Assembly: GCA_964500205.1 (NCBI GenBank)
Contig: CAZCNS010000016.1
Coordinates: 6,665 to 38,664, forward strand
DNA length: 32,000 bases
Source: an uncultured Chryseobacterium sp.
GTDB taxonomy: Bacteria > Bacteroidota > Bacteroidia > UBA10329
Direction: 5' to 3'
Positions 2,637 through 32,000 of the stretch are shown piece after piece (within the stretch, counting starts at the first letter, position 1; the number at the start of each line of letters is the position of its first letter). The translations under genes and the position numbers were made by a program. The notes under the pieces were generated by a model. The model worked only from the letters and a program-made list of their open reading frames with translations, was not told where the DNA came from and searched no databases.

Positions 2637-3185
2637 GTGAAGGCTTTGAACTACATACCCCTCTACACCTACGAGGACTACCGCCAGTGGGAGGGTGAGT
2701 GGGAGCTTATCGGTGGGCATCCCCATGCGATGAGTCCTTCACCCAAGAGGAAGCATCAGTATTTCAGCGGGGAACTGACCTTCAGCCTCAAGGAATACCT
2801 CAAAAGGCTGATGGACAGCTGTGGCAGTTGCAGGGTCTATCAGGACCTGGACTGGATTGTGGACGACAGCACCGTTGTGCGACCCGACATCATGGTGGTC
2901 TGCGGTGAGTTCAAAGATGATTTCCTGCAATCCCCGCCCGCACTCATCGTGGAGATCCTCAGTCCAAGCACGGCACTGAAGGACAAGAACATCAAGTACA
3001 ACCTCTACGAGGCGCAGGGTGTGCGCTACTACCTGCTCGTAGAACCCGACTCCCGCTCGGTGCAGATCCTAGAGCTTGTTGACGGTGCGTATGCCGAGAA
3101 CAACAGTTTGTCGGAGTTCCGGCTCACCGATGGCTGCGTCATCCCGTGGAAGGTTCAGGAGGTGCTCTCCTCCATCGAGGACTGA
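2637..3185 (+). CDS. Uma2-family (DUF820) PD-(D/E)XK-like endonuclease
   Basis: GTG start at 2637. YTYEDYRQWEG.WELIGG...RPDIMVVCG...PPALIVEILSPST..KDKN.KYNLYEAQGVRYYLLVEP matches the Uma2 pattern (D...E-[IV]-x-S-x-S...K...Y...GV.EYW). Confidence 0.8.
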   Translation: MKALNYIPLYTYEDYRQWEGEWELIGGHPHAMSPSPKRKHQYFSGELTFSLKEYLKRLMDSCGSCRVYQDLDWIVDDSTVVRPDIMVVCGEFKDDFLQSPPALIVEILSPSTALKDKNIKYNLYEAQGVRYYLLVEPDSRSVQILELVDGAYAENNSLSEFRLTDGCVIPWKVQEVLSSIED

Positions 3186-3192
3186 GCCCCGC

Positions 3193-4467
3193 TCAACTGC
3201 TGCGGTAGATCAGGCAGGAGAAATCCTGCTCATTCAGCATCTCGTTGGCGATACGAAGCAGTTCCGAGGAAGTGATAGCCTCGATGCGCTGTGCCGTCTC
3301 GGCCAGGGTGTGGATACGGTCGAAGAGCAGGATGCTACGCCCGAAGCCCAACATCTGACTGGCGTTGTGCTCCTCAGCGATGGCCACCTGACCGAGCAAC
3401 TGCTGCTTCGCCTTGTGCAGTTGCAGTGAACCGAGGGCAGTGTCGCGCATCTGTTTCAGCTCGCGTTTCACCAGCTTCATGCATTTCTCCAGATACTGTG
3501 CGTCCGTGCCGAAATAGATGGAGAACATCCCCGTGTCGGAGAACGTGGAATACCCCGATTCCACGCTGTAGGTATAGCCGTGCTTCTCGCGCAGCGACAT
3601 GTTGAGCCGCGCGTTGAGGCCCGGCCCACCGAGGATGTTGCTGAGCATGTACAGCCCGATGCGGTCCTCGTGGTCGGCAGCGTAGGCAATGTTGCCCATC
3701 AACACGTGCTCCTGAAAGTTGCTGCGGGTCTCGGTGCGAGTCTGCGGACGGTAACCGCTGAAAGGTATGCGCTGGTCCGTGCCACTGGATGGCGGCACGA
3801 GGCCGAAAGTCCGCTCCACCATGCGTTGCAGCTTACGGATGTCAATCCTCCCCACCGAACTCAGCACCATGCGGTCGGTGTGATAGCCGCGGCTGATGAA
3901 CTCCCGCACCGATCCGGCCGTGAAGCTGCGCACGCTCTCAGGCGTGCCGAGGCTGTTGCGCCCGATGGGGTCATCATTGAAAAGCAGCTCCTCGAACTCA
4001 TCGAAGATCATGTCCGAGGGCGAGTCGAGGTACGAGTTGATCTCATCTATGATGACGGCCTTCTCCTTCTCCAGCTCCTTAGGCGGAAAGGTGGAGTTGA
4101 ACGCGATGTCGTGAAAAAGCTCAATGGAGCGGTCGTAATGCGGGCTCAGGAACGAGGCATGGATAACGGTCTCCTCCTTGGTGGTGTAGGCGTTGAGCTC
4201 ACCGCCCACGTCCTCCAGGCGGCTCAGGATGTGGTATGCCTTACGATGAGTCGTACCCTTGAAGATGGTGTGCTCGATGAAATGCGCGAGGCCGTGCTCA
4301 TGCAGCAGTTCATCGCGCGAGCCGACATTGATGAAGAACCCGAGGTGCGCCACGGGCGAGTCCACCTGCTTTTGCACACAGCGGATGCCGTTGGGCAATG
4401 TCCACCTGATCAACCCCTCCTCGTCTGTCATGGGCGGCAAAGGTACTTCTGCACCGATGCGGTTCAT
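3193..4467 (-). CDS. M16-family (pitrilysin/insulinase-like) zinc peptidase
   Basis: It has the inverted zinc motif HxxEH (HFIEHTIFKGT), the downstream LNAYTTKEETV glutamate region, and a length of about 420 aa. Its ATG overlaps the stop of the upstream gene as ATGA (4464-4467). An alternative start is Met13 at 4431. Confidence 0.85.
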   Translation of the reverse strand: MNRIGAEVPLPPMTDEEGLIRWTLPNGIRCVQKQVDSPVAHLGFFINVGSRDELLHEHGLAHFIEHTIFKGTTHRKAYHILSRLEDVGGELNAYTTKEETVIHASFLSPHYDRSIELFHDIAFNSTFPPKELEKEKAVIIDEINSYLDSPSDMIFDEFEELLFNDDPIGRNSLGTPESVRSFTAGSVREFISRGYHTDRMVLSSVGRIDIRKLQRMVERTFGLVPPSSGTDQRIPFSGYRPQTRTETRSNFQEHVLMGNIAYAADHEDRIGLYMLSNILGGPGLNARLNMSLREKHGYTYSVESGYSTFSDTGMFSIYFGTDAQYLEKCMKLVKRELKQMRDTALGSLQLHKAKQQLLGQVAIAEEHNASQMLGFGRSILLFDRIHTLAETAQRIEAITSSELLRIANEMLNEQDFSCLIYRSS

Positions 4468-5615
4468 GGTGTGATGAAATCGAGATAGTTCTCCAAGGTG
4501 ATGACCTCAAAAGTGGTATCGGGGTAAGCCCTCTTCCAACCTCCGGGGACACGTGCCGTCTTCTTGTCCGACCACTTGAACTCGAATGCCCGCAGCTCCG
4601 TGCCCTCCTCCTCCACCAGGTCGAGTTCCTGCTGGTCGTAGGTGCGCCAGAAGTAGCGGTTCACATATCTGCGACTGTAGGAAAGGTATTTCATGCGCTC
4701 GGCCATGAGGTAGTTCTCCCACAGCTCGCCCCTGTCCATGCGCATGTCCAGACGGTTGAAATTGCCGATGATGGCGTTGCGGATGCCGTTATCATAGAAA
4801 TACCAGCGGCCCGTCTTGGTCACCTCCTTGCGCAGGTTGCGGCTGAAACCGCGGACATTGTAAATGACGAACACCTTGGACAGCAGGTCGAGGTAGGTCT
4901 CCACCGTATTTCGGCTGATGCCCTTGAGGCCGTTTGCCAGCTCATCGAGGCTGACCTCCTTCCCTATCTGGAATGCGATGAGCCGTAGCAGGTCCATCAG
5001 CTTGTCAGACCGCCTCACCCCGTCATACTCCAGCAGGTCGCGGAGCAGATAGGCATCGACCACCTCGCGCAGATAGTCTTCCTTATCATGCCAATCGGGG
5101 TACTGCCCCAGTTCGGGATAACTGCCGAAGATGAGCCGTTCCTCCCTGCGTTCCAAGGTCTCCGGATAGCTCTCCAGGGTGCTGAACTCCATCTGTGCCA
5201 ATGGGAAAAGATGCAGTGTGTTGGAGCGGCCCACCAGCGGCTCTCCGAGCCTGTTGCTGAGATCGAACATGGAGGAGCCGGTGGCTATGACGGCCACGTC
5301 CTTCATGTGGTCCACGATGAGCTTGAGTTTCAGCCCGGCCTCCGGTATGTGCTGCGCCTCATCGATCACCAGCAGCTTGCGGTCGCCCATCAGCCGCTTG
5401 TAGCCCGCCACCGAACGCTCGGCCAGCAGATCGACCGTCTGCTGCTCCTCACCATTGAGGAACAGGTAGGTGGACGGGTCGCGGTCGCGGAGATAGCGGG
5501 CGATCAGCTCGGACTTGCCGACCCGTCTGGCCCCCAGCAGGATGAGCACTTTGCCCGGCCGCACCTTGTCCAAAAAGCGGTGGAGCAATGCCCTCGGGAT
5601 GTGGGTCGTTTCCAT
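4464..5615 (-). CDS. AAA-type ATPase with a C-terminal DUF4143 (PD-(D/E)XK-like) domain, COG1373-like
   Basis: Walker A is LGARRVGKS and Walker B is LLVIDEAQHIP. The C-terminal ELDLVEEEGTELRAFEFKWS resembles a D...E-x-K nuclease core. The architecture is typical of DUF4143 ATPases. Confidence 0.8.
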   Translation of the reverse strand: METTHIPRALLHRFLDKVRPGKVLILLGARRVGKSELIARYLRDRDPSTYLFLNGEEQQTVDLLAERSVAGYKRLMGDRKLLVIDEAQHIPEAGLKLKLIVDHMKDVAVIATGSSMFDLSNRLGEPLVGRSNTLHLFPLAQMEFSTLESYPETLERREERLIFGSYPELGQYPDWHDKEDYLREVVDAYLLRDLLEYDGVRRSDKLMDLLRLIAFQIGKEVSLDELANGLKGISRNTVETYLDLLSKVFVIYNVRGFSRNLRKEVTKTGRWYFYDNGIRNAIIGNFNRLDMRMDRGELWENYLMAERMKYLSYSRRYVNRYFWRTYDQQELDLVEEEGTELRAFEFKWSDKKTARVPGGWKRAYPDTTFEVITLENYLDFITP

Positions 5616-8535: not shown

Positions 8536-9996
8536 ATGGATATCGTTGAGCAGATGATCGCCCGCATGGGTAAGGATGAGCTGCGGTTTTTCCGGATGTA
8601 CGCCTCGCGTATGGAGGTGAAGGGCCCTCGCAAGGACATGCAGCTTTTCGACCGCATCCGGACAGAAGGGACAGCATTCAGTGACGAGACCGCCTCCGAT
8701 GAACTGTACACGGACGGGAATCGCAACGCGTATTATCGACTCAAGAACCGCCTCAAGACGGAGCTTGCAAAAAGTCTGCTGCTCCAACACATCGAAAGTG
8801 AGGAAACCTCACAGGTGCTTCACCTGCTTCTGCTGGCAAGGCATTACCAGTCAAGGAATGCCTACGCACTTGCCGAGCATTTCCTCAATAAAGCAGAACG
8901 AAGGGCGGGTGCGGCAGAGAGCCATGAACTGCTCGACCTGATCTACACCGAGTTCATCCGTCTCTCTCAGGAAGTGGTGACCATCGACCCCGAGACCTAC
9001 ATCGCAAAGCGCAGGGAGAATTCGGCACAGTTGCACATGCTTCGGCAAATGGACGAGATACTGGCCACGGTGAAATACCGGCTCAAAGTGACCCAGAACT
9101 TTTCTCCGGTGAACAATCCTGTGATCGACATGCTGCTCGAAACCGTACAACGATTGTCGTCCGATGAGCGGGTAAGGCATGGAACACAGCTACGATTCAA
9201 GATGTACCATGCGGTAAGTCAGATTCTCCTGCAGCAGCACGATTATCCCAACCTGGAGGACTTTCTGCTGAAGACCTTCTCGCAGTTTGAGGAAGAGCGG
9301 CTATTCAACCGCGCCAACCACCAGACCAAGCTTCAAATGTTGACGTACATCGTCAATGCCCTGTTCAAGAACGGCAAAACGGCACAATCGCTCGAGTGGG
9401 CCGAACGACTCCATGATGCCATGAACGAGCACGATCGGCTGCTCTACGACCGATTCCTTTTCTTCTACTACAACTCACTGGTCATCAATTACACCAAGAC
9501 CGATCTTGATCGCGCCATCGCGCTGCTGCTCGACCTGGAAAATCACCCTAAACTCCGAGACACGCAGTACTACCTCATTTTCGTGCATCTGAACCTGTCC
9601 ATCTTCTTTTTTCAGAAAGGAGATCACAGGCAAGCAATACGAAGACTCAATCAGCTGTATCACCACGAACGATTCGCGCTCACAGCAACACCACTGAGAT
9701 TACGCATCGCAATGTTCGAACTGATGGTGCGCACCGAGCTCGGTGACATGGATGTAGTCGAACAGCGTTTGAAGCAAGTGAGACAGACTTTTGCGGAGCA
9801 ATTGAAACAAGGGGAAAACAGACGCGAGGCCGAACTTCTCACCATTATTGAAAAGTTGTTCTTGAAAGGCATATCTCCACGGGAGCGTGAGATGGCGGCA
9901 CTTCTGAAAGCTTTCACAACCAGCACCAGTCCTGAGGAGCAGGACGCGGAACTTTTGAACTACAACGGGTGGTTGGTCAGCAAAGTGAAAGTCTGA
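8536..9996 (+). CDS. Hypothetical all-alpha, TPR-like helical-repeat protein
   Basis: This is a long ORF with normal composition. I recognised no catalytic motif and no signal peptide or transmembrane segment. The start is uncertain: ATG 8536 is preferred, with in-frame alternatives at 8473 and 8392. Confidence 0.6.
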   Translation: MDIVEQMIARMGKDELRFFRMYASRMEVKGPRKDMQLFDRIRTEGTAFSDETASDELYTDGNRNAYYRLKNRLKTELAKSLLLQHIESEETSQVLHLLLLARHYQSRNAYALAEHFLNKAERRAGAAESHELLDLIYTEFIRLSQEVVTIDPETYIAKRRENSAQLHMLRQMDEILATVKYRLKVTQNFSPVNNPVIDMLLETVQRLSSDERVRHGTQLRFKMYHAVSQILLQQHDYPNLEDFLLKTFSQFEEERLFNRANHQTKLQMLTYIVNALFKNGKTAQSLEWAERLHDAMNEHDRLLYDRFLFFYYNSLVINYTKTDLDRAIALLLDLENHPKLRDTQYYLIFVHLNLSIFFFQKGDHRQAIRRLNQLYHHERFALTATPLRLRIAMFELMVRTELGDMDVVEQRLKQVRQTFAEQLKQGENRREAELLTIIEKLFLKGISPREREMAALLKAFTTSTSPEEQDAELLNYNGWLVSKVKV

Positions 9997-10079
9997 ACAG
10001 GACCGACATACTATGAACAACCCGCCACATCTTCTTAACAATTGCGAGAGCAGAGATCAACCACCGCTGCACGGTCATT

Positions 10080-16214: not shown

Positions 16215-17462
16215 TCAAATTCCGAGCAGCACCTCCTCGGCCGTTTTCCCTCCGAAGAGCATGGACGCGGGGTTCTCCAGCATCTCCTTCACCTTCACAA
16301 GGAAGCTGACGGATTCCTTGCCATCAATGATGCGGTGGTCGTAGCTCAGCGCGAGATACATCATGGGACGGGCCACAATCTGGCCGTTCTCCACCACTGC
16401 GCGCTCCACGATGTTGTGCATACCGAGGATCGCACTCTGAGGCGGATTCAGGATGGGGGTGCTCATCATCGAGCCGAACACGCCACCGTTGGTGATGGTG
16501 AATGTGCCACCCGTCATTTCCTCCACAGAAATCTTGCCGTCACGCACCTTGATTGCCAGGTCTTTGATACCTGACTCTATCTGCGCGAGGCTCATCTGCT
16601 CTGCATTGCGAAGTACGGGCACCATCAGTCCTTTCGGGCCGCTCACCGCCACACCTATATCGCAGTAGTCATGAAAAACAATGTCCTGCCCATCGATCAT
16701 GGCATTAACGGCCGGATAATGATATAGGGCTTCGGTCACGGCCTTGGTGAAGAAGCTCATGAAGCCGACATTCACCCCGTGGGTCTCCGAGAACTTCTGC
16801 TTGTACTTGGTGCGCATATCCATGATGGGCTTCATATTCACCTCGTTGAAGGTGGTGAGCATGGCCGTGTCGTTCTTAACAGAAACGAGACGCTCCGCGA
16901 TCTTGCGTCTGAGCATGCTCATCTTCTCCGAACGGACTTCACGTCCGCCCGCCCAGCTCTGACCTGCATCCCCTAAAGAAAATCCTGATGACATCGCTGT
17001 GAGCACATCGCCCTTGGTGATGCGTCCGTCTTTGCCAGATGCCTTCACCTGACTGGCGGAGACGTTGTTCTCGGCCATCAGCTTCTTGGCTGCGGGCGAA
17101 GGTGTGCCAGCGGCATAGCCTGCTTCCTGCTTCTTCTCGGCCAAGGGCGCGGGCGCAGCCTCTTTCTTGGGTGCAGCTTCAGCTTTCGGGGCTTCTTCCT
17201 TCTTCGGTGCGGGCGCATCGGCTGGGGCCTCTGCACTGGTGTCGATGGTGCAGATGACATCACCCACATTCACCGTTCCTTCCTGCACCTTGATGCTCAC
17301 GATGCCCGCCTGTTCGGCATTGATGGTGAGCGTGGCCTTGTCGGAGTCTATCTCGCAGAGCTCCGCATCCTGCTGTACGTAATCGCCATCGGACACGAGC
17401 CAAGATGCTATCTCAACTTCCGTGATGGATTCTCCTGGACTGGGGACTTTTACTTCAAACAT
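16215..17462 (-). CDS. sucB: 2-oxoglutarate dehydrogenase E2, dihydrolipoyllysine-residue succinyltransferase
   Basis: It has a lipoyl domain ([12 protein letters not shown]), an Ala/Pro/Lys-rich linker and the catalytic motif [11 protein letters not shown]. Confidence 0.93.
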
Positions 17463-17477
17463 GTTGTTGTATGATTT

Positions 17478-17626
17478 TTAACCGCCAAGGCGATTTTGGT
17501 TTAACCACAAAGGCGCACAAAGTTCAATTCACAAAGGAACACGAAGATGTTTTGTTTGACCGCCAAGGCGGGGATGTTTTAACCACGAAGGCACACAAAG
17601 TTCAAGTTCACAAAGGAACACAAAGG
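17478..17626 (+). repeat. Tandem duplication (78-bp period) of a ~70-nt unit built from CAC[AG]AAG heptamers (copies A1 and A2)
   Basis: A1 at 17478-17546 is ttaaccgccaaggcg...aaccacaaaggcgcacaaagttcaattcacaaaggaacacgaag. A2 at 17556-17626 is ttgaccgccaaggcg...aaccacgaaggcacacaaagttcaagttcacaaaggaacacaaag. By hand alignment they are about 85 percent identical. Confidence 0.85.
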
Positions 17627-17709
17627 GAAAACTCGTACTTAATGGCTAATGTTCTTCTCTAATTGACTTTGAGCGACTTCGTGAAAAACCCTTTGTGCGC
17701 CTTTGTGGT
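17504..17709. repeat. Long hairpin closed by a perfect 19-bp inverted repeat in the sucB-proximal flank of the GxxExxY gene
   Basis: accacaaaggcgcacaaag (17504-17522) is the exact reverse complement of ctttgtgcgcctttgtggt (17691-17709). Confidence 0.85.
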
Positions 17710-17747
17710 AAGAATTGTGGTGAAAACACAATGCTTGTGGTTCGTGT

Positions 17748-18122
17748 TCAGAAGATTACTCGTTGGAAGCCGTTGTTGAATTGGCGGACGTTGAAGTTGG
17801 CGAGGAGGCCGAGTTTGCAACCTGAGAGTTTCAGATAGGTCAGTATCTGCGCCATGTGAACATCATTCAGCTTTTCCACCGATTTAACCTCCACAATCAC
17901 GCAGTCATTGACCAACAGGTCGAGACGGTAACCCGCATCCAATTGTATTTCATTGTAATTCAGTGGCATCACCTTCTGCCGTTCTACTATCAGACCCGCC
18001 TCACTCATTTCATACGCGTGACATTCCTCATAAGCACTCTCTAACAGGCCTGGGCCGAGTGCCGTATGAACCGCGAACGAACAATCCAAGACCTTTTTGA
18101 AAACTTCTTCCCTGTTCAGCAT
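17748..18122 (-). CDS. GxxExxY-family protein (PD-(D/E)XK-like fold, of the kind found in 23S rRNA intervening sequences)
   Basis: The 124-aa product carries the signature G-LL-E-SA-Y (GPGLLESAYEEC), then RLDLLVNDCVIVEVKS (D...E-x-K) and TYLKLSGCKLGLLANF. These match my recollection of the GxxExxY family. Confidence 0.8.
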   Translation of the reverse strand: MLNREEVFKKVLDCSFAVHTALGPGLLESAYEECHAYEMSEAGLIVERQKVMPLNYNEIQLDAGYRLDLLVNDCVIVEVKSVEKLNDVHMAQILTYLKLSGCKLGLLANFNVRQFNNGFQRVIF

Positions 18123-18132
18123 CTCTCTGATG

Positions 18133-18303
18133 TTTAACCACGAAGGCGACTTTTATTCAACCACAAAGCCGCACGAAGTTCAAGGTCACAAAGGCACACG
18201 AAGTGTTCTTTCTCATGTAAACCAATCCAAAAAAACCTTCTTTCCCTTTGTGCTCCTTCGTGAATCCCGCATGTGCGGGACTTCGTGTTCCTTCGTGGTT
18301 AAA
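18133..18303. repeat. Long hairpin closed by a perfect 14-bp inverted repeat in the sucA-proximal flank: a third direct unit (A3) plus a full inverted unit
   Basis: tttaaccacgaagg (18133-18146) is the exact reverse complement of ccttcgtggttaaa (18290-18303). A3 at 18134-18203 aligns with A1 and A2. The inverted unit at 18244-18305 contains a small inner hairpin, cccgca-tg-tgcggg. Confidence 0.85.
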
Positions 18304-18338
18304 ACTTTCCGCGTCAGCGGCCCATAATTCCTTCGCGG

Positions 18339-21071
18339 TCAAACAGCCATTTCCTTCTCAAAAACCTTACTTATCAACCTCGCCTGAACCGCCCTGTGTC
18401 TCGTGCCTGAACCCGTGGCGGGAGTTCCGCTCGGTGGACGGCAGATGACATCCAGATCCACATCGCGCCACACTCGCAGCAGGTGACTCCATGCGCCCAT
18501 ATTCTCGGGCTCTTCTTGCACCCAAGTCCACTTCTTGGCGTTGGTGTACTTGCCGATGAGCGCCTTGAGCTGCTTGCGCGGCAGCGGTTCTATCTGTTCC
18601 AAGCGGAGCAACGCTACGCTTGTATCTCCAATGCGCTCCTTCTCATCCAGCAGCTCGTAGTAGATCTTGCCCTGACAAACCACCACACGCTCCACGGCCT
18701 TCGGGTCGGCAGTGGCATCGTCTATCACCTCTTGGAATCGGCCCGTGGCGAGTTCCTTCATCGAGCTGACGCAGCGCGGGTGGCGCAACAGGCTCTTAGG
18801 GGTGAAGATGACGAGCGGCTTGCGGAAATCGCGCTTCATCTGTCTGCGCAGCACGTGAAAGAAATTGGCGGGTGTGGTGCAGTTCACCACTTGGATGTTG
18901 TAGCCGGCATACACGTTGAGGAAACGCTCCATCCGCGCACTGCTGTGCTCCGCGCCCTGCCCCTCATAGCCGTGTGGCAGCAACAGTACGAGACCATTCA
19001 TCGCCTTCCATTTCTCCTCTGCCGAGCAGATGAACTGGTCGATGATGATCTGCGCACCGTTCACGAAATCACCGAACTGCGCCTCCCACATGGTGAGTGC
19101 GGCAGGGTTTCCGAAGGCGTGGCCATAATCAAAGCCCATCACTGCGTATTCCGACAGCAGTGAATTATACACGCTGAACTCGGCCTGCCCTTCTTTCAGG
19201 TCGTTGAGCGGCACATACTCCTGCTCGCTGTCCTCGACCTTGAGCACAGAATGGCGGTGGCTGAAGGTGCCGCGCTCACAGTCCTGACCGCTGAGGCGCA
19301 CAGGATGTCCCTCCACCAGCAGCGATGCGAACGCCAGATGCTCGGCCATGCCCCAGTCCAGGCGGTCGGTCTTCAACACCATATCGCGCCTGTCCTGGAG
19401 TATCTTCTCCATCTTGCGGAAGAACTTCCAACCATCGGGCACTGTAGTCAAGCGGTCGGCAAGGTCCTTCAACGTCTTCTCACTCACGCCCGTTTCGGGA
19501 CTCTGGTCGAAATCCTCAGGCTTCGCGAAGCGGAATCCTTCCCACGTGTCGGCCAAGAACTGCGTGATCTTGGCCTTCTCGATCTCCTTGGATTCATCAA
19601 GCCGCTCTTGCAACATCTGCTTGAACTGCTCCTCCATCTCCATAACCATCTCCTTCTCCACCACGCCCTGCTCGGTCAGCTGCTTGCGGTAGATCTCCAA
19701 CGGATTGGGGTGCTTTGCGATGAGATTGTAGAGGATGGGCTGGGTGAAGCGCGGCTCATCGCCCTCGTTGTGTCCGTATTTGCGGTAGCAGAGCAGATCC
19801 ACGAACACATCGCCCTTGAAAGCCTGACGGAACTCCATGGCCAGTTTCATGGTACGGGCCACGGCCTCCACATCGTCACCGTTCACATGGAACACGGGCG
19901 AAAGCGTTGTCTTACCCACATCGGTGCAGTAGATGCTGCTACGGGCATCGAGGTAGTTGGTGGTGAATCCCACCTGATTGTTGATGACGATATGGATGGT
20001 GCCTCCCGTGCGATAGCCATCAAGCTTCGCCATCTGCACAGTCTCATACACCACTCCCTGACCAGCTATGGCCGCATCGCCATGTATGATGACCGAGCAC
20101 AACTTGGCGTCATCGCCCTTGTACTTGCGGTCTATCTTGGCCCTTGAGATACCCTGCACCACGGGGCCGACAGCCTCCAAATGTGAGGGGTTGGGGCAAA
20201 GGTTCATTTTCACCTCTTTGCCATTGTCACATTTTGCGAAGCTGGTGGAACCGAGGTGATACTTCACATCACCCTCCACATCAGCATCCTCATAATCGTG
20301 CCCTGCGAACTCGGTGAAGATGTCCTTGTAGGTCTTGTTGAAGATGTTGGCCATCACGTTCAGGCGGCCACGATGCGCCATTCCGAACACAAACTCCTCG
20401 ATGCCCAGTTCACTGCCCACCTCCACGGCCACGTCCAACGCGGGGATCAGTGCCTCGGCACCTTCCAGCGAGAAACGTTTCTGTCCAGGGAATTTCCTGT
20501 CGAGGAACTGCTCGAACACCACGGCCTGATTCAGTTTGCGCAGGATGGCCTTCTTGTCCTCCATGGAGAAACGCGGCTGGTTGCGGTCGGTCTCAAGTCG
20601 CTTCTGCATCCACTCCAGCACCTCTGGTCTGCGGATATACATGTACTCCACCCCGATGCTCTGGCAGTACGTGGCCTTAAGGTGAGCAACGATGTTCTCC
20701 AAAGTGGCGGGGCCGATACCCAGCACGGAACCCGCTTGGAACACGGTCTTCAGGTCGGCATCACTAAGGTTGAAGTTCCCGATTTCGAGCGTGGGGGTGT
20801 ACTGCCTGCGCTCGCGAACAGGATTTGTCTTTGTGAAAAGATGTCCGTTCTTGCGATAAGCGTTAATGAGGTTGATAACATCAAATTCCTTCTGGAAATT
20901 GGCCGGGATGCCATCGGCACTCTCCAGATCGTAAGTCGTCCGTGCAAACTCGAAACCCGCAAAGAACCGCTGCCAATCGTCATTGACGGACTTCGGGTCT
21001 TTGATGAACTGCTGGTAGAGATGCTCCGCAGCGGAGACATCCATGTTGGAGAGGAAAGAGTAGTTGTCCAT
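18339..21071 (-). CDS. sucA: 2-oxoglutarate dehydrogenase E1 component
   Basis: The product is about 910 aa from ATG 21071 (MDNYSFLSNMDVSAAEHLYQQF). It carries the ThDP-binding region GDAAIAGQGVVYE and RKYGHNEGDEP. The 21344 extension is not SucA-like and contains the promoter box. Confidence 0.93.
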   Translation of the reverse strand: MDNYSFLSNMDVSAAEHLYQQFIKDPKSVNDDWQRFFAGFEFARTTYDLESADGIPANFQKEFDVINLINAYRKNGHLFTKTNPVRERRQYTPTLEIGNFNLSDADLKTVFQAGSVLGIGPATLENIVAHLKATYCQSIGVEYMYIRRPEVLEWMQKRLETDRNQPRFSMEDKKAILRKLNQAVVFEQFLDRKFPGQKRFSLEGAEALIPALDVAVEVGSELGIEEFVFGMAHRGRLNVMANIFNKTYKDIFTEFAGHDYEDADVEGDVKYHLGSTSFAKCDNGKEVKMNLCPNPSHLEAVGPVVQGISRAKIDRKYKGDDAKLCSVIIHGDAAIAGQGVVYETVQMAKLDGYRTGGTIHIVINNQVGFTTNYLDARSSIYCTDVGKTTLSPVFHVNGDDVEAVARTMKLAMEFRQAFKGDVFVDLLCYRKYGHNEGDEPRFTQPILYNLIAKHPNPLEIYRKQLTEQGVVEKEMVMEMEEQFKQMLQERLDESKEIEKAKITQFLADTWEGFRFAKPEDFDQSPETGVSEKTLKDLADRLTTVPDGWKFFRKMEKILQDRRDMVLKTDRLDWGMAEHLAFASLLVEGHPVRLSGQDCERGTFSHRHSVLKVEDSEQEYVPLNDLKEGQAEFSVYNSLLSEYAVMGFDYGHAFGNPAALTMWEAQFGDFVNGAQIIIDQFICSAEEKWKAMNGLVLLLPHGYEGQGAEHSSARMERFLNVYAGYNIQVVNCTTPANFFHVLRRQMKRDFRKPLVIFTPKSLLRHPRCVSSMKELATGRFQEVIDDATADPKAVERVVVCQGKIYYELLDEKERIGDTSVALLRLEQIEPLPRKQLKALIGKYTNAKKWTWVQEEPENMGAWSHLLRVWRDVDLDVICRPPSGTPATGSGTRHRAVQARLISKVFEKEMAV

Positions 21072-24548: not shown

Positions 24549-26888
24549 TCACTCCTCCCAATCATCGGTCTTGAACTCAGATGTCGTCAAAGATTTCTCA
24601 AACGTAAGCAACAGCGCTGGAAGTATCAGCAGGTTGGAGAACATCGCCACCAGCAGCGTGATGCTCACCAATAGACCGAGTGCCTGCGTGCCACCGAACG
24701 CGCTGGCAGTGAATATCGCGAAGCCGAAGAACAGCACCACACTGGTGTAGATCATACTGACTCCGACCTCGCGCAAGGCCTTCATCACAGATTTCCTGAT
24801 GCTCCAGCCTGTTAGCTCCAATTCCTGCCGGTACTTGGCGAGAAAGTGGATGGTGTCATCGACCGAGATGCCAAGCGCTATGCTGAAAACGAGGATGGTT
24901 GATGGCTTGATGGTGATGCCGAAATAGCCCATCAGCGCGGCTGTGACGATAAGGGGGAAAAGGTTGGGTACAAGTGACACCAGCACCATGCGCCATGACC
25001 GGAACATCCGCAACATGATTAGCGCGATGATGACAATGGCTATACCAAGGCTTACGAGCAGATTCTTGACCAGATACTCGGTGCCTTTGGTGAACACGAC
25101 CGAGGTGCCGGTGAGCAGCACTTCATAGCGGTCATGCGGGAAAATGGAATCGACCATAGGCCGGACCCTGTCCAGCAGTGCTGCCATATCTTCGGTGCCG
25201 ATGTCCCTCATCTGCACGCTGACACGGGTCACCTGCCTCGCACTGTCTATAAAAGTGTGAAGCAGGCCAGCACCTTCCTCCTCACCTTCTCCATAGCTGA
25301 GTATGAAACCTCTCTCGCTGTTGTTGGGCAGGGCATATTTCGTGGTCATTCCACCATAGTAGCCCTGCTTGATGAACTTGATGACCTCGACCATACTCAC
25401 CGGCCGAGCAAACTCCTCAAACACCGCCAACGAATCCTGCAATCGGTCTATCCGCCTCAGCGTGGCTGCCGACACGGCCCGGTCGGGCTTCAGGGCATCG
25501 ACCCGCAACTCGAAAGGCATCACCCCACCGAACTGGCTCTCGAACCAACGGAGGTCGGTCAGAACAGGGTTGTCGTCCGGCAGGTCATCAACCAGATTGC
25601 CGGTGGTGCGCACCTTGGTTATACCATTGATGGCGACCAAGAACATGATGGCCGTCACCCAATAGATGGCTGCCCGCTGCGACTGTACGATCTGGATGAA
25701 ACGGGTAACTATGACCCTGCTCGTCCTCCTGTCGAGGTGGCGTATGTGACGGCTCTTCGGATTTGGCAGGTAACTGAACACCACAGGGATAAGCAAAAGC
25801 GATGCGAGGAACACCCCCATGATGCTCAAGGACGCCACAATGCCAAACTCACGCATGACCTGACTTTCCAGAATGGCGAAAGTGACGAAGCCTGATGCCG
25901 TGGTGGCATTGGTAAGCAGGGTGGCATTGCCCACCTTTCGCACCATGCGCTGCAATGCCTTGATCTTGTTGCCATGGGCACGGAACTCACTGTGGTATTT
26001 GTTGAGCAGAAAAATGCAGTTGGCAATGCCCAGCACGATAAGCACGGGAGGAATCAATCCTGTCAGCACGCTAAGCTTATAGCCCAGCAGACTGATGATG
26101 CCGAATGCCCAGACCACAGCGATGCCCACCACCAGCATGCTGAAAAAAACCACCTTGAACGAACGGAAGAACAGCAGCATGATGAGTGCCGTAACAGCCG
26201 CAGCGAGGAACATGAACATCCGCAGCTCGGTCTGCACCATCTGCGCGATAACGCTGCGGATGAACGGCAGCCCAGAGAAATGCAGCTCGGCACCCAGCCT
26301 CTGCTCAAATCCCAAAGCCAAGCTGCGCACCTTCTCTGAGAGTTCGATGCGCTTCTTGTTGTCGAGATAGTCAGGACTGATGGTCACTGCCATCACGAAG
26401 CTCATGCTATCAGGATTCCACAGTACGTGCTGATAGAACGGCAACCCCTCGAGCACCACGCGGATGCTATCCACCGTGACCTGTGAAGCAGGGCGTTCCG
26501 CAACCACCGTAAGGAAATCGAATTTTCGCAACTCATCATTCCTGTGGATGTTCATGCATCGCGCCACCGAGATCACCTGATCGATGCCCTCCACGCCCTT
26601 CAACTCTTGGCCCAGGTCATACCATGCGTTGAAAACGCCCATATCGAACATGTGCGGCTGATGGATGCCGATGACCATCATGGCACCATCCTCCCCAAAC
26701 TGTTCCTTGAACTCCTGGTATGCCAGCAAGTCCGGGTCGTCCGCTGGCAGCAGTGACGCGAAGTCATAGCGCACCTGCACAGTGGTAGCCCGTTGCGCCA
26801 TGAAAGCCGTCACCACTGCGATGAGCAGCAGAATGAACGGCCTGTTTCTAAGTATGATACGGGCAATGGTCTGCCACATGGCAAGCAT
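24549..26888 (-). CDS. MMPL/RND-superfamily exporter (two 6-TM bundles with two large extracytoplasmic loops, HpnN-like architecture)
   Basis: The 779-aa product is an internally duplicated polytopic protein, with hydrophobic blocks around aa 220-380 and 620-760. [14 protein letters not shown] is typical of MMPL/SSD-type transporters. Confidence 0.8.
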
Positions 26889-26938
26889 CCCGCGCTTTGA
26901 ATGCAGGCGGGGGCCGCGAAACTAACCAATCGCAGGCA

Positions 26939-27057
26939 GGGGTGAAATGAAGGAATCTGAACATGTGGGGTTCCCATTTCGGAAGGTCTTGTGGGACACA
27001 CGGTGCTACAACCGACCGAAGGGAGTTCACTGCTTTTCGCAGTAATCATTTCACCCC
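26939..27057. repeat. Perfect 12-bp long-range inverted repeat enclosing 95 nt in the MMPL-upstream intergenic region
   Basis: ggggtgaaatga (26939-26950) is the reverse complement of tcatttcacccc (27046-27057). Confidence 0.8.
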
Positions 27058-27251
27058 GCTGGGGTTCAATCGCGACCATGGCCATGGATGACGGAAGCAC
27101 CGAAACACCTCACCCCTCCCCAAAATCCCGTTAGGCCAGTCTGCCGACAGGCAGGGATGACATGACTGCAGAAACGGACGGTGGTGATGAATGCCGTTCC
27201 AACCCCGTTAGGGGCTCCCACCTCGGCAGGTTTTGTTGGGGAAACGGTGCT
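26965..27251 (+). repeat. Two imperfect ~43-45-nt direct repeats, 242 nt apart, in non-coding DNA
   Basis: The first copy at 26965-27007 is gtggggttcccatttcggaaggtcttgtgggacacacggtgct. The second at 27207-27251 is gttaggggctcccacctcggcaggttttgttggggaaacggtgct. They are about 80 percent identical by eye. Each has an internal tccca/tggg[ag] stem. The block cccgttagg also recurs at 27127 and 27204. Confidence 0.7.
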
Positions 27252-27270
27252 TTCCTTCAAATAGAATCTA

Positions 27271-28575
27271 TCAGTCACCAAAATATCGGAAAGCCCTTCG
27301 GAAACCACGATTTACAGCTTCCTCCACAGTAAATGCCCGAAAATCTCCCTTGCGGTCAATCTTGGTTCTATCATATTGCTGATCGAAAGGAAGATGGTAG
27401 ATTTTTGTTTCTAATCCATATTCATCTCGATTAACGTTACACTTGATTCTTGGAAAATCCAAAAAAGGATAATTTTCGAATGCCTTAACACCAAGACGTT
27501 CAGCGAACTTCTTTGCTGTCTCTGATAGGCCAATATTCGTAACAAACACAGGCTCAACCTTGATGTCCTCATTCAAGGACATCTCATACTCTATCGTGGT
27601 GCCATAGAGTTGAGCGATGTGTTTTTCGTGAATCAGCTTTTCCTGTGCCCAATACTTGCATTGGACTACCCAGTGGCAATCAGGTTTTCTGCCTATCAGA
27701 TCACGACCCAAGTCAGAGAGTTTTTGCTCTATTCCGATATACTCAACTTCCCAACCGTGCTTTTCCATCTGATACCCGCAGGACATCTCATAGTCGCGGC
27801 CAATTTGCCACTTGGTCTTGCGTCCTTGAACATATCTGTCCAATGCAAGCTGATTTCTTTCATTCTCACTCAGATTCTCATACTCTGATTTTGAGAGGAA
27901 AAATCGGGTTCTATCATAATCATCTTGAAACTCCTCTAAGGTCTTCTCATTCTCCAGTTCCTTCAAGCTCTCGAAGTCATCAACGTAGTTAGATAACTCG
28001 GGGAAAGTTTGAAGCAGGAACTCATACTTGTAGAGCATCTGTCTATATCGCTCAATGTGTCCTTTCGCGTCCTGTTTGAGCTCCATTATTCTTTTCGCCT
28101 CACCATGGGCAGGATGCGGTTTGGTTTTCAAATATGTCGCAGAGTAATTGTATTGAACAAGAAGAAAGTCTGCATACATCGAGGTGATTTTGCTTACCGA
28201 CTGGTTGTCCTTGCTTTTTACCGCCTCAAATAGCTCATTCTGCTTATTGATGATTTGAGTCAGTTCAAGGACTTCCTCTTCATGCTCTGGCTGTCGAGCA
28301 TCGAGAGCATCTCGCAGTTGCGCATTTTCCCGCTTCAACAGAGAAATCGTCTCACTTGTTGATCCCTCTACACTGGCTAATTCAACTCGTTGTCGTTCCA
28401 ATAGACGTGCTGCCTCTTTCTTGTACTGATTGAACTTCTTCTTGGCTGCCTCAAGATTGTACTCTAAACTTCTAATTCTGCCAAGTAACATATACTTCTG
28501 TCGGTGCAGATTTCTAATCCAAATGGCAAAAGCCAAAACCAGTAAGGCACCACCAATCAAAAGCAGATTTAACAT
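27271..28575 (-). CDS. Membrane-anchored coiled-coil protein with a C-terminal Mrr-like (PF04471-type) restriction endonuclease domain and a K-C-N-x...IYH-x-P terminal motif
   Basis: An N-terminal transmembrane helix is MLNLLLIGGALLVLAFAIWI. Residues ~30-250 are helical, heptad-rich sequence. Residues ~255-367 (nt 27475-27813) read GWEVEYIG...LGRDLIGRK...WVVQCKYW...HIAQLYG, matching the Mrr_cat D...QxK core. Residues 377-430 read IKCNVNRDEYGLETKIYHLPFDQQYDRTKI..GDFRAFTVEEAVNRGFRRA. Hand counts give about 30-45 percent GC per 60-nt line, against about 60 percent in flanking genes. Confidence 0.75.
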   Translation of the reverse strand: MLNLLLIGGALLVLAFAIWIRNLHRQKYMLLGRIRSLEYNLEAAKKKFNQYKKEAARLLERQRVELASVEGSTSETISLLKRENAQLRDALDARQPEHEEEVLELTQIINKQNELFEAVKSKDNQSVSKITSMYADFLLVQYNYSATYLKTKPHPAHGEAKRIMELKQDAKGHIERYRQMLYKYEFLLQTFPELSNYVDDFESLKELENEKTLEEFQDDYDRTRFFLSKSEYENLSENERNQLALDRYVQGRKTKWQIGRDYEMSCGYQMEKHGWEVEYIGIEQKLSDLGRDLIGRKPDCHWVVQCKYWAQEKLIHEKHIAQLYGTTIEYEMSLNEDIKVEPVFVTNIGLSETAKKFAERLGVKAFENYPFLDFPRIKCNVNRDEYGLETKIYHLPFDQQYDRTKIDRKGDFRAFTVEEAVNRGFRRAFRYFGD

Positions 28576-28588
28576 CTCAAGCTACTTT

Positions 28589-31500
28589 TCACTTCAACCC
28601 CACCTTGTACCCCATCTGCTCCTGAATGCCGTAGATCAGTTCCTGATTGGGTTTGACGGTGACGGAACGTGAGCGCAGGATGACGCGGTCGCCCTCTTGA
28701 TCGGTGATGCGGAACGCCACCTTGCACGGCCCGGGGTGCGCGCTGAACAGCGTCTCCAACTCGGCCACCTGCTGTGGCAGCACGTCCGACAACGGCAGGT
28801 CTATCGTGATGCCCTGCACCTTCTTGTCCATCAGCGAGGGGAGCAGTTCTATGCTCACGATCTTCAGTTCCTTCTCGGGCGGGCGGGCATCGTCCTTGCC
28901 GCGCCAGCGCTCCTTCCACATGGCGCGCACGTAGAGGAAGAACCCATCGCTGAAGAACTCGCGCCATTTGGTGTAATCCTCTCCGAAGAGGCGGATCTCC
29001 AACGTGCCCTCGTGGTCCTCCAGCTCGAAGATGCCGAAGGGGTTACCGTTCTTGCTCATGCGGTGCTGCACGCCCGTGACGATGCCCGCGAACTTCCACT
29101 CCTGGGAAATGGCCTGCGCTTCGGGGGTCTGCACGTGGAGGAGGTTGGAGTTGCACCAGGTCTTGATGGCCAGTTTGTGCTCGTCCAGCGGATGGCCGCT
29201 GATGTAAACGCCCACCACCTCACGCTCGGCCTTCAGGGCCTGGATGTTGCCCCACGGCTCACAGACGGGCGCGGTGGGTTCGGCCAACTGCACGGATGAC
29301 TCGTCACCGAAGAGCGACACCTGTGCCGAGTTGATGCTCTCTTGATGGCTCTGCCCGAACTTGATGGCCTTCTCAATGAATGTGGATGTGCCATCGTTGT
29401 GGAAATACATTGCGCGGTGGCTGCCCGCGAACGAGTCGAACGCGCCCGCTACTGCAAGGCTTTCCAGCGCCTTCTTGTTGGCCGCCCGCAGGTCGATGCG
29501 CTTGCTGAGGTCGAAGATGCTGATGTAGGGGCCGTTGGCCTCACGCTCGTTGACGATGGCCTCCACCGCGCCCTCGCCCACGCCCTTCACCGCACCGAGG
29601 CCGAAACGCACCTCGCCCTTGGCATTCACCGCGAACTTGTAGCGGCTCTCGTTGATGTCTGGGCCGAGCACGGGAACGCCCATCCTGCGGCATTCGTCCA
29701 TGAAGAACGTGACCTTCTTCAGGTCGTTCATGTTGTGCGTGAGCACCGAGGCCATGTATTCCGCAGGGTAGTTCGCCTTGAGGTAGCCTGTGTGGTAGGC
29801 CACCACGCTGTAGCACGTGCTGTGGCTCTTGTTGAAGGCGTACTGCGCAAACGCCTCCCAGTCGGTCCAGATCTTCTCCAGCTTGTCCTGCGGATGGCCC
29901 TTTGCCATGGCCCGCTCGATGAACATCGGCTTCATCTTGTCCAGCTTTTCGCGGATCTTCTTGCCCATCGCCTTACGGAGGTCATCCGCCTCGCCCTTGG
30001 TGAAATCGGCCAGCTTCTGCGACAGCAGCATCACCTGCTCCTGATAGACCGTGATGCCGTAGGTCTCGGACAGGTACTCCTCCAGTTCGGGCAGGTCGTA
30101 GCTGATGGGCTCGCGGCCATGCTTCCGTGCGATGAAGTTGGGGATGTATTCCAACGGGCCGGGGCGGTAAAGCGCGTTCATGGCGATGAGATCCTCGAAC
30201 GCATCTGGCATCAGGTTGCGCAGGTGCTTCTGCATGCCTGCCGACTCGAACTGGAACGTGCCGTTGGTCATGCCCTTCTGATAGAGCTCGTAGGTCTTGG
30301 CATCGTCCAGCGGAATGGTGTCGGGGTCGATGTCGATGCCGTGCCGCTGCTTTACGAGGATGATAGCATCCTTGATGATGGAAAGCGTTTTCAGCCCGAG
30401 GAAGTCCATTTTGAGCAGGCCCGCGCTCTCCACCACGCTATTGTCGAACTGCGTTAGGGCAAGGTCGGAGTCCTTGGCGGTGGTCACGGGCACGTGCTGC
30501 GTGATGTCGCTGGGCGTGATAATGACCCCGCAGGCATGGACGCCTGTGTTGCGCAGCGAACCCTCCAGCACGCGCGCCTGCTGAATGACCTGCGCCATCG
30601 GGTCGTTGCCCTCGGCCAGCTTTTTCAGCTCATTCACCATCTGCAACTTATCCCCGTCCCCGTTCAGCTTCTCCTTAAGCTTTTTCTCTTCGAAAGAGAA
30701 GATCTGCGCCAGCGAAATGAAATCGGGGATGAGCTTCGCGATGCGGTCGGCATCGGGCAGCGGGAGGTTCATCACACGGGCCGTGTCGCGGATGGCCGAT
30801 TTGGCCGCCATGCTGCCGTAGGTGATGATCTGCGCCACCTGATTCTTGCCGTACTTGTTCACCACCCATTCTATGACCTTGCCGCGTCCCTCATCATCAA
30901 AATCGATGTCGATATCGGGAAGCGACACGCGGCTGGGGTTCAGGAATCTCTCGAACAGCAGATCGTACTTGATGGGGTCCACATTGGTGATACCGATACA
31001 ATAAGCCACCACGGATCCCGCTGCCGAACCACGCCCCGGCCCCACGCTCACGCCCATTTTCCGCGCCTCATCGCAGAAATCCTGCACAATGAGGAAATAG
31101 CCAGGATAGCCCGTGAAGTCAATGGTCTTCAGCTCGAAATCGAGGCGTTCCTTTATCTCTTCCGTTATCTCCCCGTACCGCTTTTTCGCCCCTTCGTAGG
31201 TCAGGTGTGTGAGGTAAGCCATCTCGCCCCGTTTGCCGCCATCATTGGCGTCCTCTGGGTCTATGAACTCCTGCGGGATGTCGAAGCGTGGCAGCAGCAC
31301 GTCCTGTTTCAGCTTGAAGTTCTCCACCTTGCCCAGTATCTCGGTGATGGTGGCGAACGCCTCGGGCACCTCCGCGAAGAGCGCCTTCATCTCCTTCTGA
31401 TTCTTGAAGAAGAACTGGTCGTTGGGGAACTGACGGTCGATGTATTCCAGCCCCCGCGATGGCTCGTTGATGCGCACGCCCTCCTTCACGCACTGGAGGA

Positions 31501-32000
31501 TCTTCTGTGCCTGCGCATCGCCCTGCTTCATGTAATAGACATTGTTCGCAGGGAAATACTTGACCCCGTGCCGCTTCGCGAAACCGATGAGCACCTGATT
31601 CAGCTTGCGCTCTTCGGGCAGGCCGTGGTCGATGAGTTCCACGTAGAAATCGTCCCCGAACTGCTCCTTCCACCAGAGGAACGCCTCCTCGGCCTGTTTC
31701 TCGCCCACGTTCAGGATGAGGTTCGGCACCTCGCCCCCCAGCCCGCCCGTGGTGGCGATCAGACCTTCCTTGTATTGCAACAGCACCTCGCGGTCGATGC
31801 GCGGCACGTAATAAAATCCCTCGCTGAACGAGATGGAACTCAGCTTCGCGAGGTTGTGGTACGCGGCCTTGTCCTTGGTCAGGAGCACGGTCTGATGGCC
31901 GTTGTTCTGACGGCTGCGGTCGTGGCGGTCGTCCGTCAGGTAGAACTCGCAGCCCACCACGCCCTTGAACTCCTCGCGCGGCACCCCGATGGCCTCCCCC
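28589..32000 (-). CDS. dnaE: DNA polymerase III alpha subunit, N-terminus beyond the window edge
   Basis: The frame is open to the window end. It shows the end of the PHP domain (GCEFYL), the Pol III alpha core (GYPGYFLIVQDF, GPGRGSAAGS, LPDIDIDFD, GLLKMDFLGLK), HhH and OB regions. Confidence 0.93.
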   Translation of the reverse strand, partial: GEAIGVPREEFKGVVGCEFYLTDDRHDRSRQNNGHQTVLLTKDKAAYHNLAKLSSISFSEGFYYVPRIDREVLLQYKEGLIATTGGLGGEVPNLILNVGEKQAEEAFLWWKEQFGDDFYVELIDHGLPEERKLNQVLIGFAKRHGVKYFPANNVYYMKQGDAQAQKILQCVKEGVRINEPSRGLEYIDRQFPNDQFFFKNQKEMKALFAEVPEAFATITEILGKVENFKLKQDVLLPRFDIPQEFIDPEDANDGGKRGEMAYLTHLTYEGAKKRYGEITEEIKERLDFELKTIDFTGYPGYFLIVQDFCDEARKMGVSVGPGRGSAAGSVVAYCIGITNVDPIKYDLLFERFLNPSRVSLPDIDIDFDDEGRGKVIEWVVNKYGKNQVAQIITYGSMAAKSAIRDTARVMNLPLPDADRIAKLIPDFISLAQIFSFEEKKLKEKLNGDGDKLQMVNELKKLAEGNDPMAQVIQQARVLEGSLRNTGVHACGVIITPSDITQHVPVTTAKDSDLALTQFDNSVVESAGLLKMDFLGLKTLSIIKDAIILVKQRHGIDIDPDTIPLDDAKTYELYQKGMTNGTFQFESAGMQKHLRNLMPDAFEDLIAMNALYRPGPLEYIPNFIARKHGREPISYDLPELEEYLSETYGITVYQEQVMLLSQKLADFTKGEADDLRKAMGKKIREKLDKMKPMFIERAMAKGHPQDKLEKIWTDWEAFAQYAFNKSHSTCYSVVAYHTGYLKANYPAEYMASVLTHNMNDLKKVTFFMDECRRMGVPVLGPDINESRYKFAVNAKGEVRFGLGAVKGVGEGAVEAIVNEREANGPYISIFDLSKRIDLRAANKKALESLAVAGAFDSFAGSHRAMYFHNDGTSTFIEKAIKFGQSHQESINSAQVSLFGDESSVQLAEPTAPVCEPWGNIQALKAEREVVGVYISGHPLDEHKLAIKTWCNSNLLHVQTPEAQAISQEWKFAGIVTGVQHRMSKNGNPFGIFELEDHEGTLEIRLFGEDYTKWREFFSDGFFLYVRAMWKERWRGKDDARPPEKELKIVSIELLPSLMDKKVQGITIDLPLSDVLPQQVAELETLFSAHPGPCKVAFRITDQEGDRVILRSRSVTVKPNQELIYGIQEQMGYKVGLK

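Follow-up and report, generated by a model that had tools for sequence, protein, structure and literature searches.

A horizontally acquired single gene behind dnaE encodes a predicted membrane-tethered Mrr-type nuclease, a candidate stand-alone defence protein from a mobile family

The principle of a stand-alone nuclease bound to the membrane is already known. SNIPE, first found as PD-lambda-1 (PMC9519451), has a transmembrane (TM) helix with its N-terminus outside (N-out), a central DUF4041 domain that binds DNA and the phage tape-measure protein, and a C-terminal GIY-YIG nuclease; it resides in the inner membrane, cuts phage DNA during injection, becomes toxic once the TM helix is removed, and has an N-terminal region that is poorly conserved and variable in length (PMC13190303). 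SNIPE tells foreign DNA from the cell's own by location alone (Nature 2026; PMC13190303). Epona, a validated anti-phage cassette of Vibrio chromosomal integrons, combines an Mrr_cat domain with two TM helices (bioRxiv 10.1101/2024.07.02.601686) and shows, by analogy, that membrane-bound Mrr nucleases can defend. Here we describe a gene in a 32,000-nucleotide (nt) stretch of DNA from an uncultured Chryseobacterium sp. (GenBank assembly GCA_964500205.1, contig CAZCNS010000016.1), which is called the window below. A low-GC open reading frame (ORF) of 434 codons, the cassette, follows dnaE in it and encodes a predicted membrane anchor, a coiled-coil stalk, a conserved helical domain, an Mrr-type PD-(D/E)XK nuclease and a divergent sunset domain. 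We regard it as probable that the protein is a stand-alone anti-invader defence nuclease of the inner membrane, carried on a horizontally acquired cassette.

The cassette ORF is a horizontally acquired single-gene insert in an exchangeable slot that starts at the dnaE stop codon of this high-GC Flavobacteriales genome. The features of the locus, in which L005, L006 and L056 are the relatives discussed below, are as follows.

28589..32000, minus strand: dnaE (DNA polymerase III alpha), 3' three-quarters, cut by the window end; conserved left flank (Pfam DNA_pol3_alpha, finger, HHH_6, PHP and OB)
28576..28588, minus strand: spacer of 13 nt that separates the dnaE stop from the cassette ATG and forms the left insertion junction (the relatives' dnaE homology ends at 28589-28591)
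27271..28575, minus strand: low-GC cassette ORF, complete, 434 aa plus stop, ATG start
27155..27216, minus strand: element A, about 62 nt, 55 nt past the cassette stop, 87-90% identical in L006 and L005
27001..27070, minus strand: element B, about 70 nt, upstream of the MMPL gene, 97% identical to L056 1665-1734
24549..26888, minus strand: MMPL/RND-type transporter gene, conserved right flank (Pfam MMPL and Sterol-sensing; 85% nt identity to L056 1877-4082)

The dnaE C-terminus places the host in a high-GC Flavobacteriales lineage, and by it the closest GTDB relatives are two metagenome-assembled genomes, L006 (96% amino-acid identity) and L005 (91%); together with a metagenome contig, L056, these are the three loci on which the slot comparison is based, and we count that small number among the main weaknesses. 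The window dnaE is 88-89% identical to all three at the nucleotide level, and the homology between window and relatives breaks off exactly at the dnaE stop codon (28589-28591), with the cassette start 13 nt beyond, where the preliminary description (made from the letters of the window) had also placed it. In the window the order is dnaE, the 434-aa ORF, element A, element B and the MMPL gene, and a non-coding stretch of 382 nt (26889-27270) separates the cassette from the MMPL gene. In L006 the slot is empty, with only 22 nt between the dnaE stop and element A. L005 has another gene there, encoding 216 aa, and element A lies 44 nt past it. The order in L056 is dnaE (89% nt identity), the same 216-aa gene, element B directly, and the MMPL gene (85%), that is, the window's own dnaE and MMPL flanks with other cargo. 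Element A, which is single-copy in the window, comes directly after the slot in the relatives and thus marks the right side of the insertion; the window copy has a 20-nt insertion that is missing from L005 and L006. The dnaE stop codon varies with the cargo, being TAG beside the 216-aa gene and TGA otherwise. The horizontal acquisition proposed in the preliminary description is therefore supported by the relatives, one of which (L006) has an empty slot and two of which (L005, L056) have another low-GC gene. The synteny check that it suggested gives, in L006, dnaE followed by element A with no ORF between them, and its reading of the gene as an island stands because orthologues do not occupy this locus in all relatives. 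Scans of metagenome contigs with the dnaE C-terminus and with an element-A pattern gave no match.

The composition of the cassette agrees with the abrupt GC drop at the ORF boundaries that had been described earlier from sampled lines. Its GC content is 0.426 versus 0.553 in the remaining window (z = -4.8 relative to the other 1305-nt windows, the lowest of which has 0.489), and in 200-nt windows the GC content steps down from 0.63 to 0.395 at 28600 and, entering from the other end, from 0.54 to 0.38 at 27300. At third codon positions the cassette has a GC of 0.45; dnaE reaches 0.85, the MMPL gene 0.73 and four other neighbours 0.64-0.73. The cassette's tetranucleotide deviation of 0.54 is the maximum of the window (background 0.27 +/- 0.035). 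Four independent Logan assemblies have the same arrangement with 100% identity over both junctions, which excludes a chimera peculiar to one assembly.

Neither an integrase nor a transposase is present among the annotated window ORFs, and we found no convincing flanking direct repeats of the kind that mark transposon or site-specific insertion; as the insertion route we would guess, most simply, at homologous exchange via the conserved flanks. An integron gene cassette was set aside, as no integrase was seen among the window ORFs scanned and there are no canonical attC cores: inspection by eye of the conserved element past the ORF showed hairpins without canonical RYYYAAC/GTTRRRY cores, although no dedicated attC model was run. 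As to expression, the spacer between dnaE and the cassette contains no terminator-like site in a terminator scan, sigma-70 promoter-like sites are not above chance, and the Bacteroidetes TAnnTTTG motif is absent within 300 nt upstream of the cassette and in the intergenic region. Given the 13-nt gap, the lack of a terminator-like site and the lack of a sigma-70-like or Bacteroidetes-type promoter motif upstream, co-transcription with dnaE by read-through would be the simplest expression route in this genome.

Several further observations concern the slot and its surroundings. In L006, positions 8877-9010 hold a 134-nt relic of a dnaE 3' end, 330 nt beyond the real stop and identical to that genome's own dnaE end at 110 of 134 positions, which is still readable as ...ILRSRSVTIKPDQELIFGILEQMGYKVGLK followed by a stop. 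This relic points to an earlier insertion or replacement event that carried a dnaE 3' end along with it, and therefore to previous use of the dnaE 3' end as a recombination junction. The 216-aa gene (L005 8567-9217, L056 1009-1659; GC 0.39-0.45) encodes a protein with a mid-protein TM helix and a coiled coil; its family is rare (6 matches), with no Pfam, PADLOC or significant PHROGs match to the protein. A 42%-identical homologue directly follows an MmeI-type restriction-modification (R-M) gene (L057), and the 216-aa gene may be another unrecognised defence gene. L005 alone has, at 9400-10045 between element A and an M28 peptidase gene, a small ORF and a PIN-domain gene, likely a toxin-antitoxin pair and further variable cargo downstream of dnaE. 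In the window, the intergenic stretch 26889-27270 holds two diverged copies of one module (27148-27251 and 26933-27007), which are 78% identical over one stretch of 41 nt and 89% identical over another of 18 nt; its RNA fold z-score is -2.4, and it may serve as a terminator, as the 5' untranslated region of the MMPL gene or as a recombination site. An Rfam scan of 26700-28700, which includes element A, gave no match (E <= 1).

The encoded protein has the following parts. Both the 45-sequence family alignment and the AlphaFold 2 (AF2) model lack Met1, so their numbers are those of the protein minus 1; pLDDT is the predicted local distance difference test score.

28513..28572, minus strand: N-terminal TM helix, residues 2-21 (LNLLLIGGALLVLAFAIWIR), predicted N-out/C-in
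28216..28512, minus strand: coiled-coil stalk, residues 22-120, predicted to form a continuous helix with the TM segment (AF2 helix 2-119 in model numbering, pLDDT about 85-93)
27820..28206, minus strand: family-specific conserved helical domain, residues 124-252, with invariant and near-invariant columns, modelled as a long hairpin plus short helices
27478..27813, minus strand: Mrr_cat PD-(D/E)XK core, residues 255-366 (Pfam PF04471, 31.1 bits)
27787-27789, 27700-27702, 27661-27663 and 27655-27657, minus strand: catalytic codons E263, D292, Q305 and K307, respectively
27292..27456, minus strand: divergent sunset domain, residues 374-428 (FPRIKCN...IYHLPFDQQYDRTKI...EEAV..GFRRA), from NF051437 and hhalign

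By profile, motif and modelled fold, the three features looked for, the protein belongs to the Mrr_cat PD-(D/E)XK family, and their agreement supports the nuclease call. Mrr_cat (PF04471) matches residues 260-363 with 31.1 bits against a gathering cut-off of 21; among the 45 family members Mrr_cat is matched in 35 and Mrr_cat_2 in 44. The motifs are GRDYE (259-263), GRD292 and Q305-C306-K307, and E263, D292, Q305 and K307 are invariant in the 45-sequence alignment. In the AF2 model, whose pLDDT is about 90 over the nuclease core, the alpha-beta-beta-beta-alpha-beta order of the fold is present, and Foldseek against the PDB returns AF1548 (1y88; E 1e-5), MspJI (2e-5), EndoMS/NucS (5e-4), Hjc (3e-3) and also Cdn1. 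The Foldseek matches in BFVD include proteins of uncultured siphoviruses labelled 'restriction endonuclease', and a PDB search by sequence profile gave coiled-coil noise only. The Mrr-type domain with D292, Q305 and K307 of the preliminary description is thus confirmed with its exact numbering.

The AF2 model (mean pLDDT 84) has, in model numbering, a single unbroken helix 2-119 that comprises TM segment and stalk, a helical hairpin (123-150 and 156-189) followed by short helices, the PD-(D/E)XK core at 254-365 and a small beta-hairpin-plus-helix module at 376-421. The N-terminal TM helix noticed earlier is found at residues 2-21. The approximately 230 aa of coiled coil given with it need correcting: they consist of a continuous helix of about 100 aa and, after it, the conserved helical domain of about 130 aa. 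Of 121 close homologues, 111 have a TM helix that begins near residue 3, and the helix is present in 135 of 147 representatives at 50% identity. The mean number of lysine and arginine residues in the 15 aa flanking it is 0.12 before and 4.1 after (111 homologues), and since these counts follow the positive-inside rule, an N-out/C-in topology with a cytoplasmic nuclease is predicted. What varies is the spacer: 50 to 230 aa separate the TM helix from the helical domain among close homologues, and 181-474 aa separate it from the nuclease among the representatives. The module that follows the stalk (helical domain, Mrr-type nuclease, sunset domain) is constant at about 305 aa, with 127 aa from the helical domain to GRDYE in every case and 171-188 aa from GRDYE to the C-terminus. 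No Pfam family matches the helical domain, and DUF4041 is found in 0 of 45 members (E <= 0.1). The public gene call for the protein (P0001, 406 aa) begins at Met29 and thus lacks the TM helix (codons 1-28, 28492-28575), and ten of the 121 homologues likewise appear truncated at the N-terminus; because these calls begin past the TM helix, automated annotation hides the membrane anchor in part of the family.

The C-terminal motif had been called a 'sunset' domain earlier, with doubt about the name. The name proves right: although NCBIfam NF051437 matches the cassette protein (residues 382-428) with only 20.8 bits, below the cut-off of 27, it matches 42 of 45 family members at E <= 0.01 (best 2.4e-6). 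Canonical sunset proteins were retrieved with a probe sequence written from the sunset consensus; it found 21 proteins with Pfam PF27542 (P0127-P0147), several of them named 'sunset domain-containing protein' by NCBI or UniRef. Aligned to these by hhalign, the family C-terminus gives 98.8% probability and E 5e-17 over 53 columns, with IKxN...IYHLP...Y..T.I...EEA..GFRR in common. The retrieved proteins have lengths of about 50-80 aa; a lipoprotein-like signal (LSAC) is seen in several of them and a pair of conserved cysteines in most, and their source names include Bacillus, Neobacillus, Gottfriedia and Thermoanaerobacter. The other part of the earlier statement, that the motif ends other nucleases and DNA-uptake proteins, fares less well, as one source name ('micrococcal nuclease') weakly favours it and the canonical members retrieved are these short proteins. 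Unlike them, the family has a predicted cytoplasmic sunset domain as a C-terminal appendage that lies below the curated cut-off, with a loop insertion of 4-8 residues and with the canonical cysteine pair (C.IKGN ... WFCSE) replaced (P/R...FYAFT); a different cysteine, C378, is invariant. The missing pair fits the predicted cytoplasmic location. An AF2 model of the domain alone (pLDDT 52.8) was too poor for a fold search, and our literature search on 'sunset domain' found no functional description.

The family is large and is distributed over Bacteroidota, Firmicutes and Proteobacteria. A word-indexed search gave more than 4300 relatives at 90% clustering, and an exhaustive search gave 981 clusters at 50% identity (E <= 1e-30); source names of members include Clostridia, Bacteroidota (Labilibacter, Polaribacter) and Gammaproteobacteria (Thiodiazotropha), and relatives are 45-72% identical to the window protein. 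Complete genomes of E. coli have no homologue, and PHROGs gives no significant match to the cassette protein. The closest homologue (P0002, 72% identity) begins 14 nt after an upstream gene on the same strand. Databases label members 'restriction endonuclease' or 'hypothetical'.

We compared the gene contexts at 26 loci, counted as distinct after the target protein had been clustered at 85%. They have no conserved partner gene in common, and the sole recurrent neighbours are genes of the lysogeny module. An integrase adjoins the gene in 11 of the 26, as a tyrosine integrase immediately downstream in 8 and a large serine recombinase in 3, and an HTH_3 (CI-type) repressor lies upstream in 11 (two neighbour clusters, 6 + 5), sometimes with an ImmA/IrrE protease. 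With the repressor upstream and the integrase alongside, the gene falls between repressor and integrase at prophage ends. This interval is the site of prophage-expressed exclusion and defence genes, such as lambda rex and the defence genes of mycobacteriophages. The family gene is found on 39 IMG/VR viral contigs; viral settings other than the lysogeny module include a place next to terminase genes and one between a tail-fibre-like gene and Ant (anti-repressor). Elsewhere in the family it directly follows the type IV coupling protein (T4CP) gene of a conjugative element with a relaxase and ArdC (Thiodiazotropha), occurs as a 39%-identical copy annotated 'restriction endonuclease' on four Hymenobacter plasmids, is part of an island with a PD-T7-4 homologue (E 1e-83), HEPN, PIN, CdiI and a transposase (Polaribacter), adjoins a DUF4238-Pers candidate (Labilibacter), and in another genome adjoins ImmA and DUF4411. 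Its GC content is below that of the flanks in 25 of the 26 loci, by 7 points on average. This diversity of contexts, together with the low relative GC, points to a self-contained, portable conflict gene.

A classical R-M system is rejected, as the preliminary description had it, since no methyltransferase or specificity subunit is adjacent. The neighbours are dnaE and the MMPL transporter gene, the annotated window ORFs include no methyltransferase, and the lack of any adjacent partner holds both in the window and across the 26 loci. The protein is not of the E. coli Mrr type either, having a TM helix and coiled coil at its N-terminus and no Mrr_N winged-helix/reader domain, and Shedu (DUF4263/SduA nuclease) is rejected for want of a Pfam or PADLOC profile match. 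With the Mrr/MspJI Type IV enzymes (1y88, 4f0p) it shares the catalytic fold, the E...D...(Q/E)xK motif and the solitary state, and it differs from them in lacking an Mrr_N/SRA-like reader and in having a membrane anchor, a coiled coil and the extra helical and sunset domains. Compared by description, it resembles Epona as a compact single-gene cassette in which Mrr_cat is joined to a membrane part, although the membrane part of Epona is holin-like with two TM helices, and the family has a single TM helix followed by the long coiled coil and also has the helical and sunset domains. The position in lysogeny modules next to integrases (11/26 loci) is like that of the prophage exclusion genes rexAB of lambda and sieA of P22 (PMC10883804), to which there is no sequence relationship, and SieA and Rex are not nucleases.

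The closest likeness in layout is to SNIPE. Both are single genes with a predicted or known N-out TM helix, a variable N-terminal region, a central non-catalytic domain and a C-terminal nuclease, and both are spread widely among phyla and occur on mobile elements. The cassette protein is nevertheless not a SNIPE: it has an Mrr-type PD-(D/E)XK domain rather than a GIY-YIG (T5orf172) nuclease, no DUF4041, no match to the PADLOC model and a sunset domain after the nuclease; among the features of SNIPE that were looked for, the single N-out TM helix is present, by prediction. We therefore read the resemblance as one of convergent architecture and not of homology, and a SNIPE-like way of working is suggested by the layout.

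It is because the family repeats the SNIPE layout with unrelated parts that we propose a SNIPE-like logic for it. The nuclease would sit at the inner face of the membrane and there cut foreign DNA that enters through conjugation or is injected by phages; the coiled-coil stalk of variable length probably dimerises the protein; and tethering, probably with auto-inhibition by the helical domain, would keep the nuclease off the chromosome. The family context makes defence the most likely role. A wider proposal is tentative, and we would sooner expect parts of it to fail than all of it to hold. The family would be a second, evolutionarily independent system that separates self from non-self by location, in which a membrane-tethered Mrr/sunset nuclease acts on entering DNA, the stalk (about 50 to >300 aa) is an adjustable spacer and the helical domain serves as a sensor or gate for the entry machinery, as DUF4041 does in SNIPE; the slot at the dnaE stop would in addition be a recombinase-free exchange site for single defence genes, with the L006 relic recording earlier exchanges.

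Other accounts of the same facts have to be weighed against a defence nuclease working at the site of entry. One would make the protein a membrane-tethered Type IV (modification-dependent) restriction enzyme in which the sunset or helical domain is the reader and the anchor is secondary. It draws on the Mrr_cat membership, on structural matches to MspJI and AspBHI and on the solitary state without a methyltransferase, which is a hallmark of Type IV, and it is compatible with action at the membrane. Yet Pfam searches of the protein and of the 45 members detect none of the known readers of base modifications, such as Mrr_N, SRA or YTH, and soluble Type IV logic leaves the strictly conserved TM helix and stalk unexplained; we consider this account unlikely. 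An abortive-infection (Abi) or toxin effector would use the same anchor differently, as a membrane-held nuclease that is freed or activated in the course of infection by proteolysis, membrane depolarisation or envelope damage and then degrades the host chromosome, which kills the cell. A tethered nuclease is potentially toxic, as SNIPE without its TM helix kills cells, Epona joins Mrr_cat to a holin-like membrane part, the lysogeny-module position is typical of Abi genes such as rexAB, and ImmA/IrrE proteases are among the neighbours at some loci. Such an effector seems decidedly improbable to us all the same: no protease, sensor or antitoxin partner is conserved, no conserved linker resembling a cleavage site is evident, and the stalk varies freely in length.

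It is also conceivable, though in our opinion very improbable, that the gene has nothing to do with defence and encodes a membrane nuclease for DNA uptake, the processing of conjugative DNA as it enters, entry exclusion or the turnover of prophage or host DNA, or that it is an unexpressed passenger in this genome. The copy immediately after a T4CP gene on a conjugative element and the sunset protein labelled 'micrococcal nuclease' would fit the former, and the lack of a recognisable promoter of its own and the unadapted codon usage would fit the latter. The contexts are, however, too varied for a single housekeeping role, close relatives do without the gene, and identities of 45-72% across phyla with an intact active site favour a selected, portable and self-contained function.

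A number of points weigh against the defence reading itself. Some members stand alone among housekeeping genes (L008-L010 and L014, beside purC or sdh), as does the window copy; no homologue was found among the GenBank phage genomes of INPHARED; the PADLOC check proposed in the preliminary description, when run on the protein, matched no PADLOC 2.0 model (E <= 1); and no paper on the family turned up in literature searches, one of them for an Mrr defence protein with TM helix and coiled coil. The low GC of the cassette is owed in part to the K/E/N/I-rich composition of the coiled coil, and the host expression of the gene would have to do without a recognisable promoter or terminator. Canonical sunset proteins look secreted, so that a cytoplasmic role of the domain is unclear, and a stalk of 100 aa would put the nuclease about 15 nm from the membrane, which is not obviously ideal for cutting at an entry pore.

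What is new, then, is a family for which we found neither a paper nor a PADLOC 2.0 model, and what the present locus adds is the exchangeable slot at the dnaE stop, the life of the family on prophages and other mobile genetic elements, and its convergence with SNIPE. With no PADLOC 2.0 model and a bare 'restriction endonuclease' as its annotation, the family would be overlooked in defence censuses, especially where a member is alone among housekeeping genes. If the proposed function is true, an unrelated nuclease fold in the same arrangement of anchor, spacer, adaptor and nuclease would mean that the location strategy is general and has evolved repeatedly. The slot downstream of dnaE, in which identical flanks enclose alternative single-gene cargo, would show cleanly, in a natural setting, how defence genes are replaced one at a time outside classical islands.

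Other features of the window have no link to the cassette. These include a gene of the Uma2 family (putative restriction-endonuclease-like) at 2637-3185, an AAA_14 + DUF4143 ATPase gene at 4464-5615, and several proteins sorted by the type IX secretion system (Por_Secre_tail), which are consistent with Bacteroidota. The second strongest compositional outlier of the window, at 17300-18500 (GC about 0.48-0.51, tetranucleotide deviation 0.42-0.44), falls between sucB-like and sucA-like genes.

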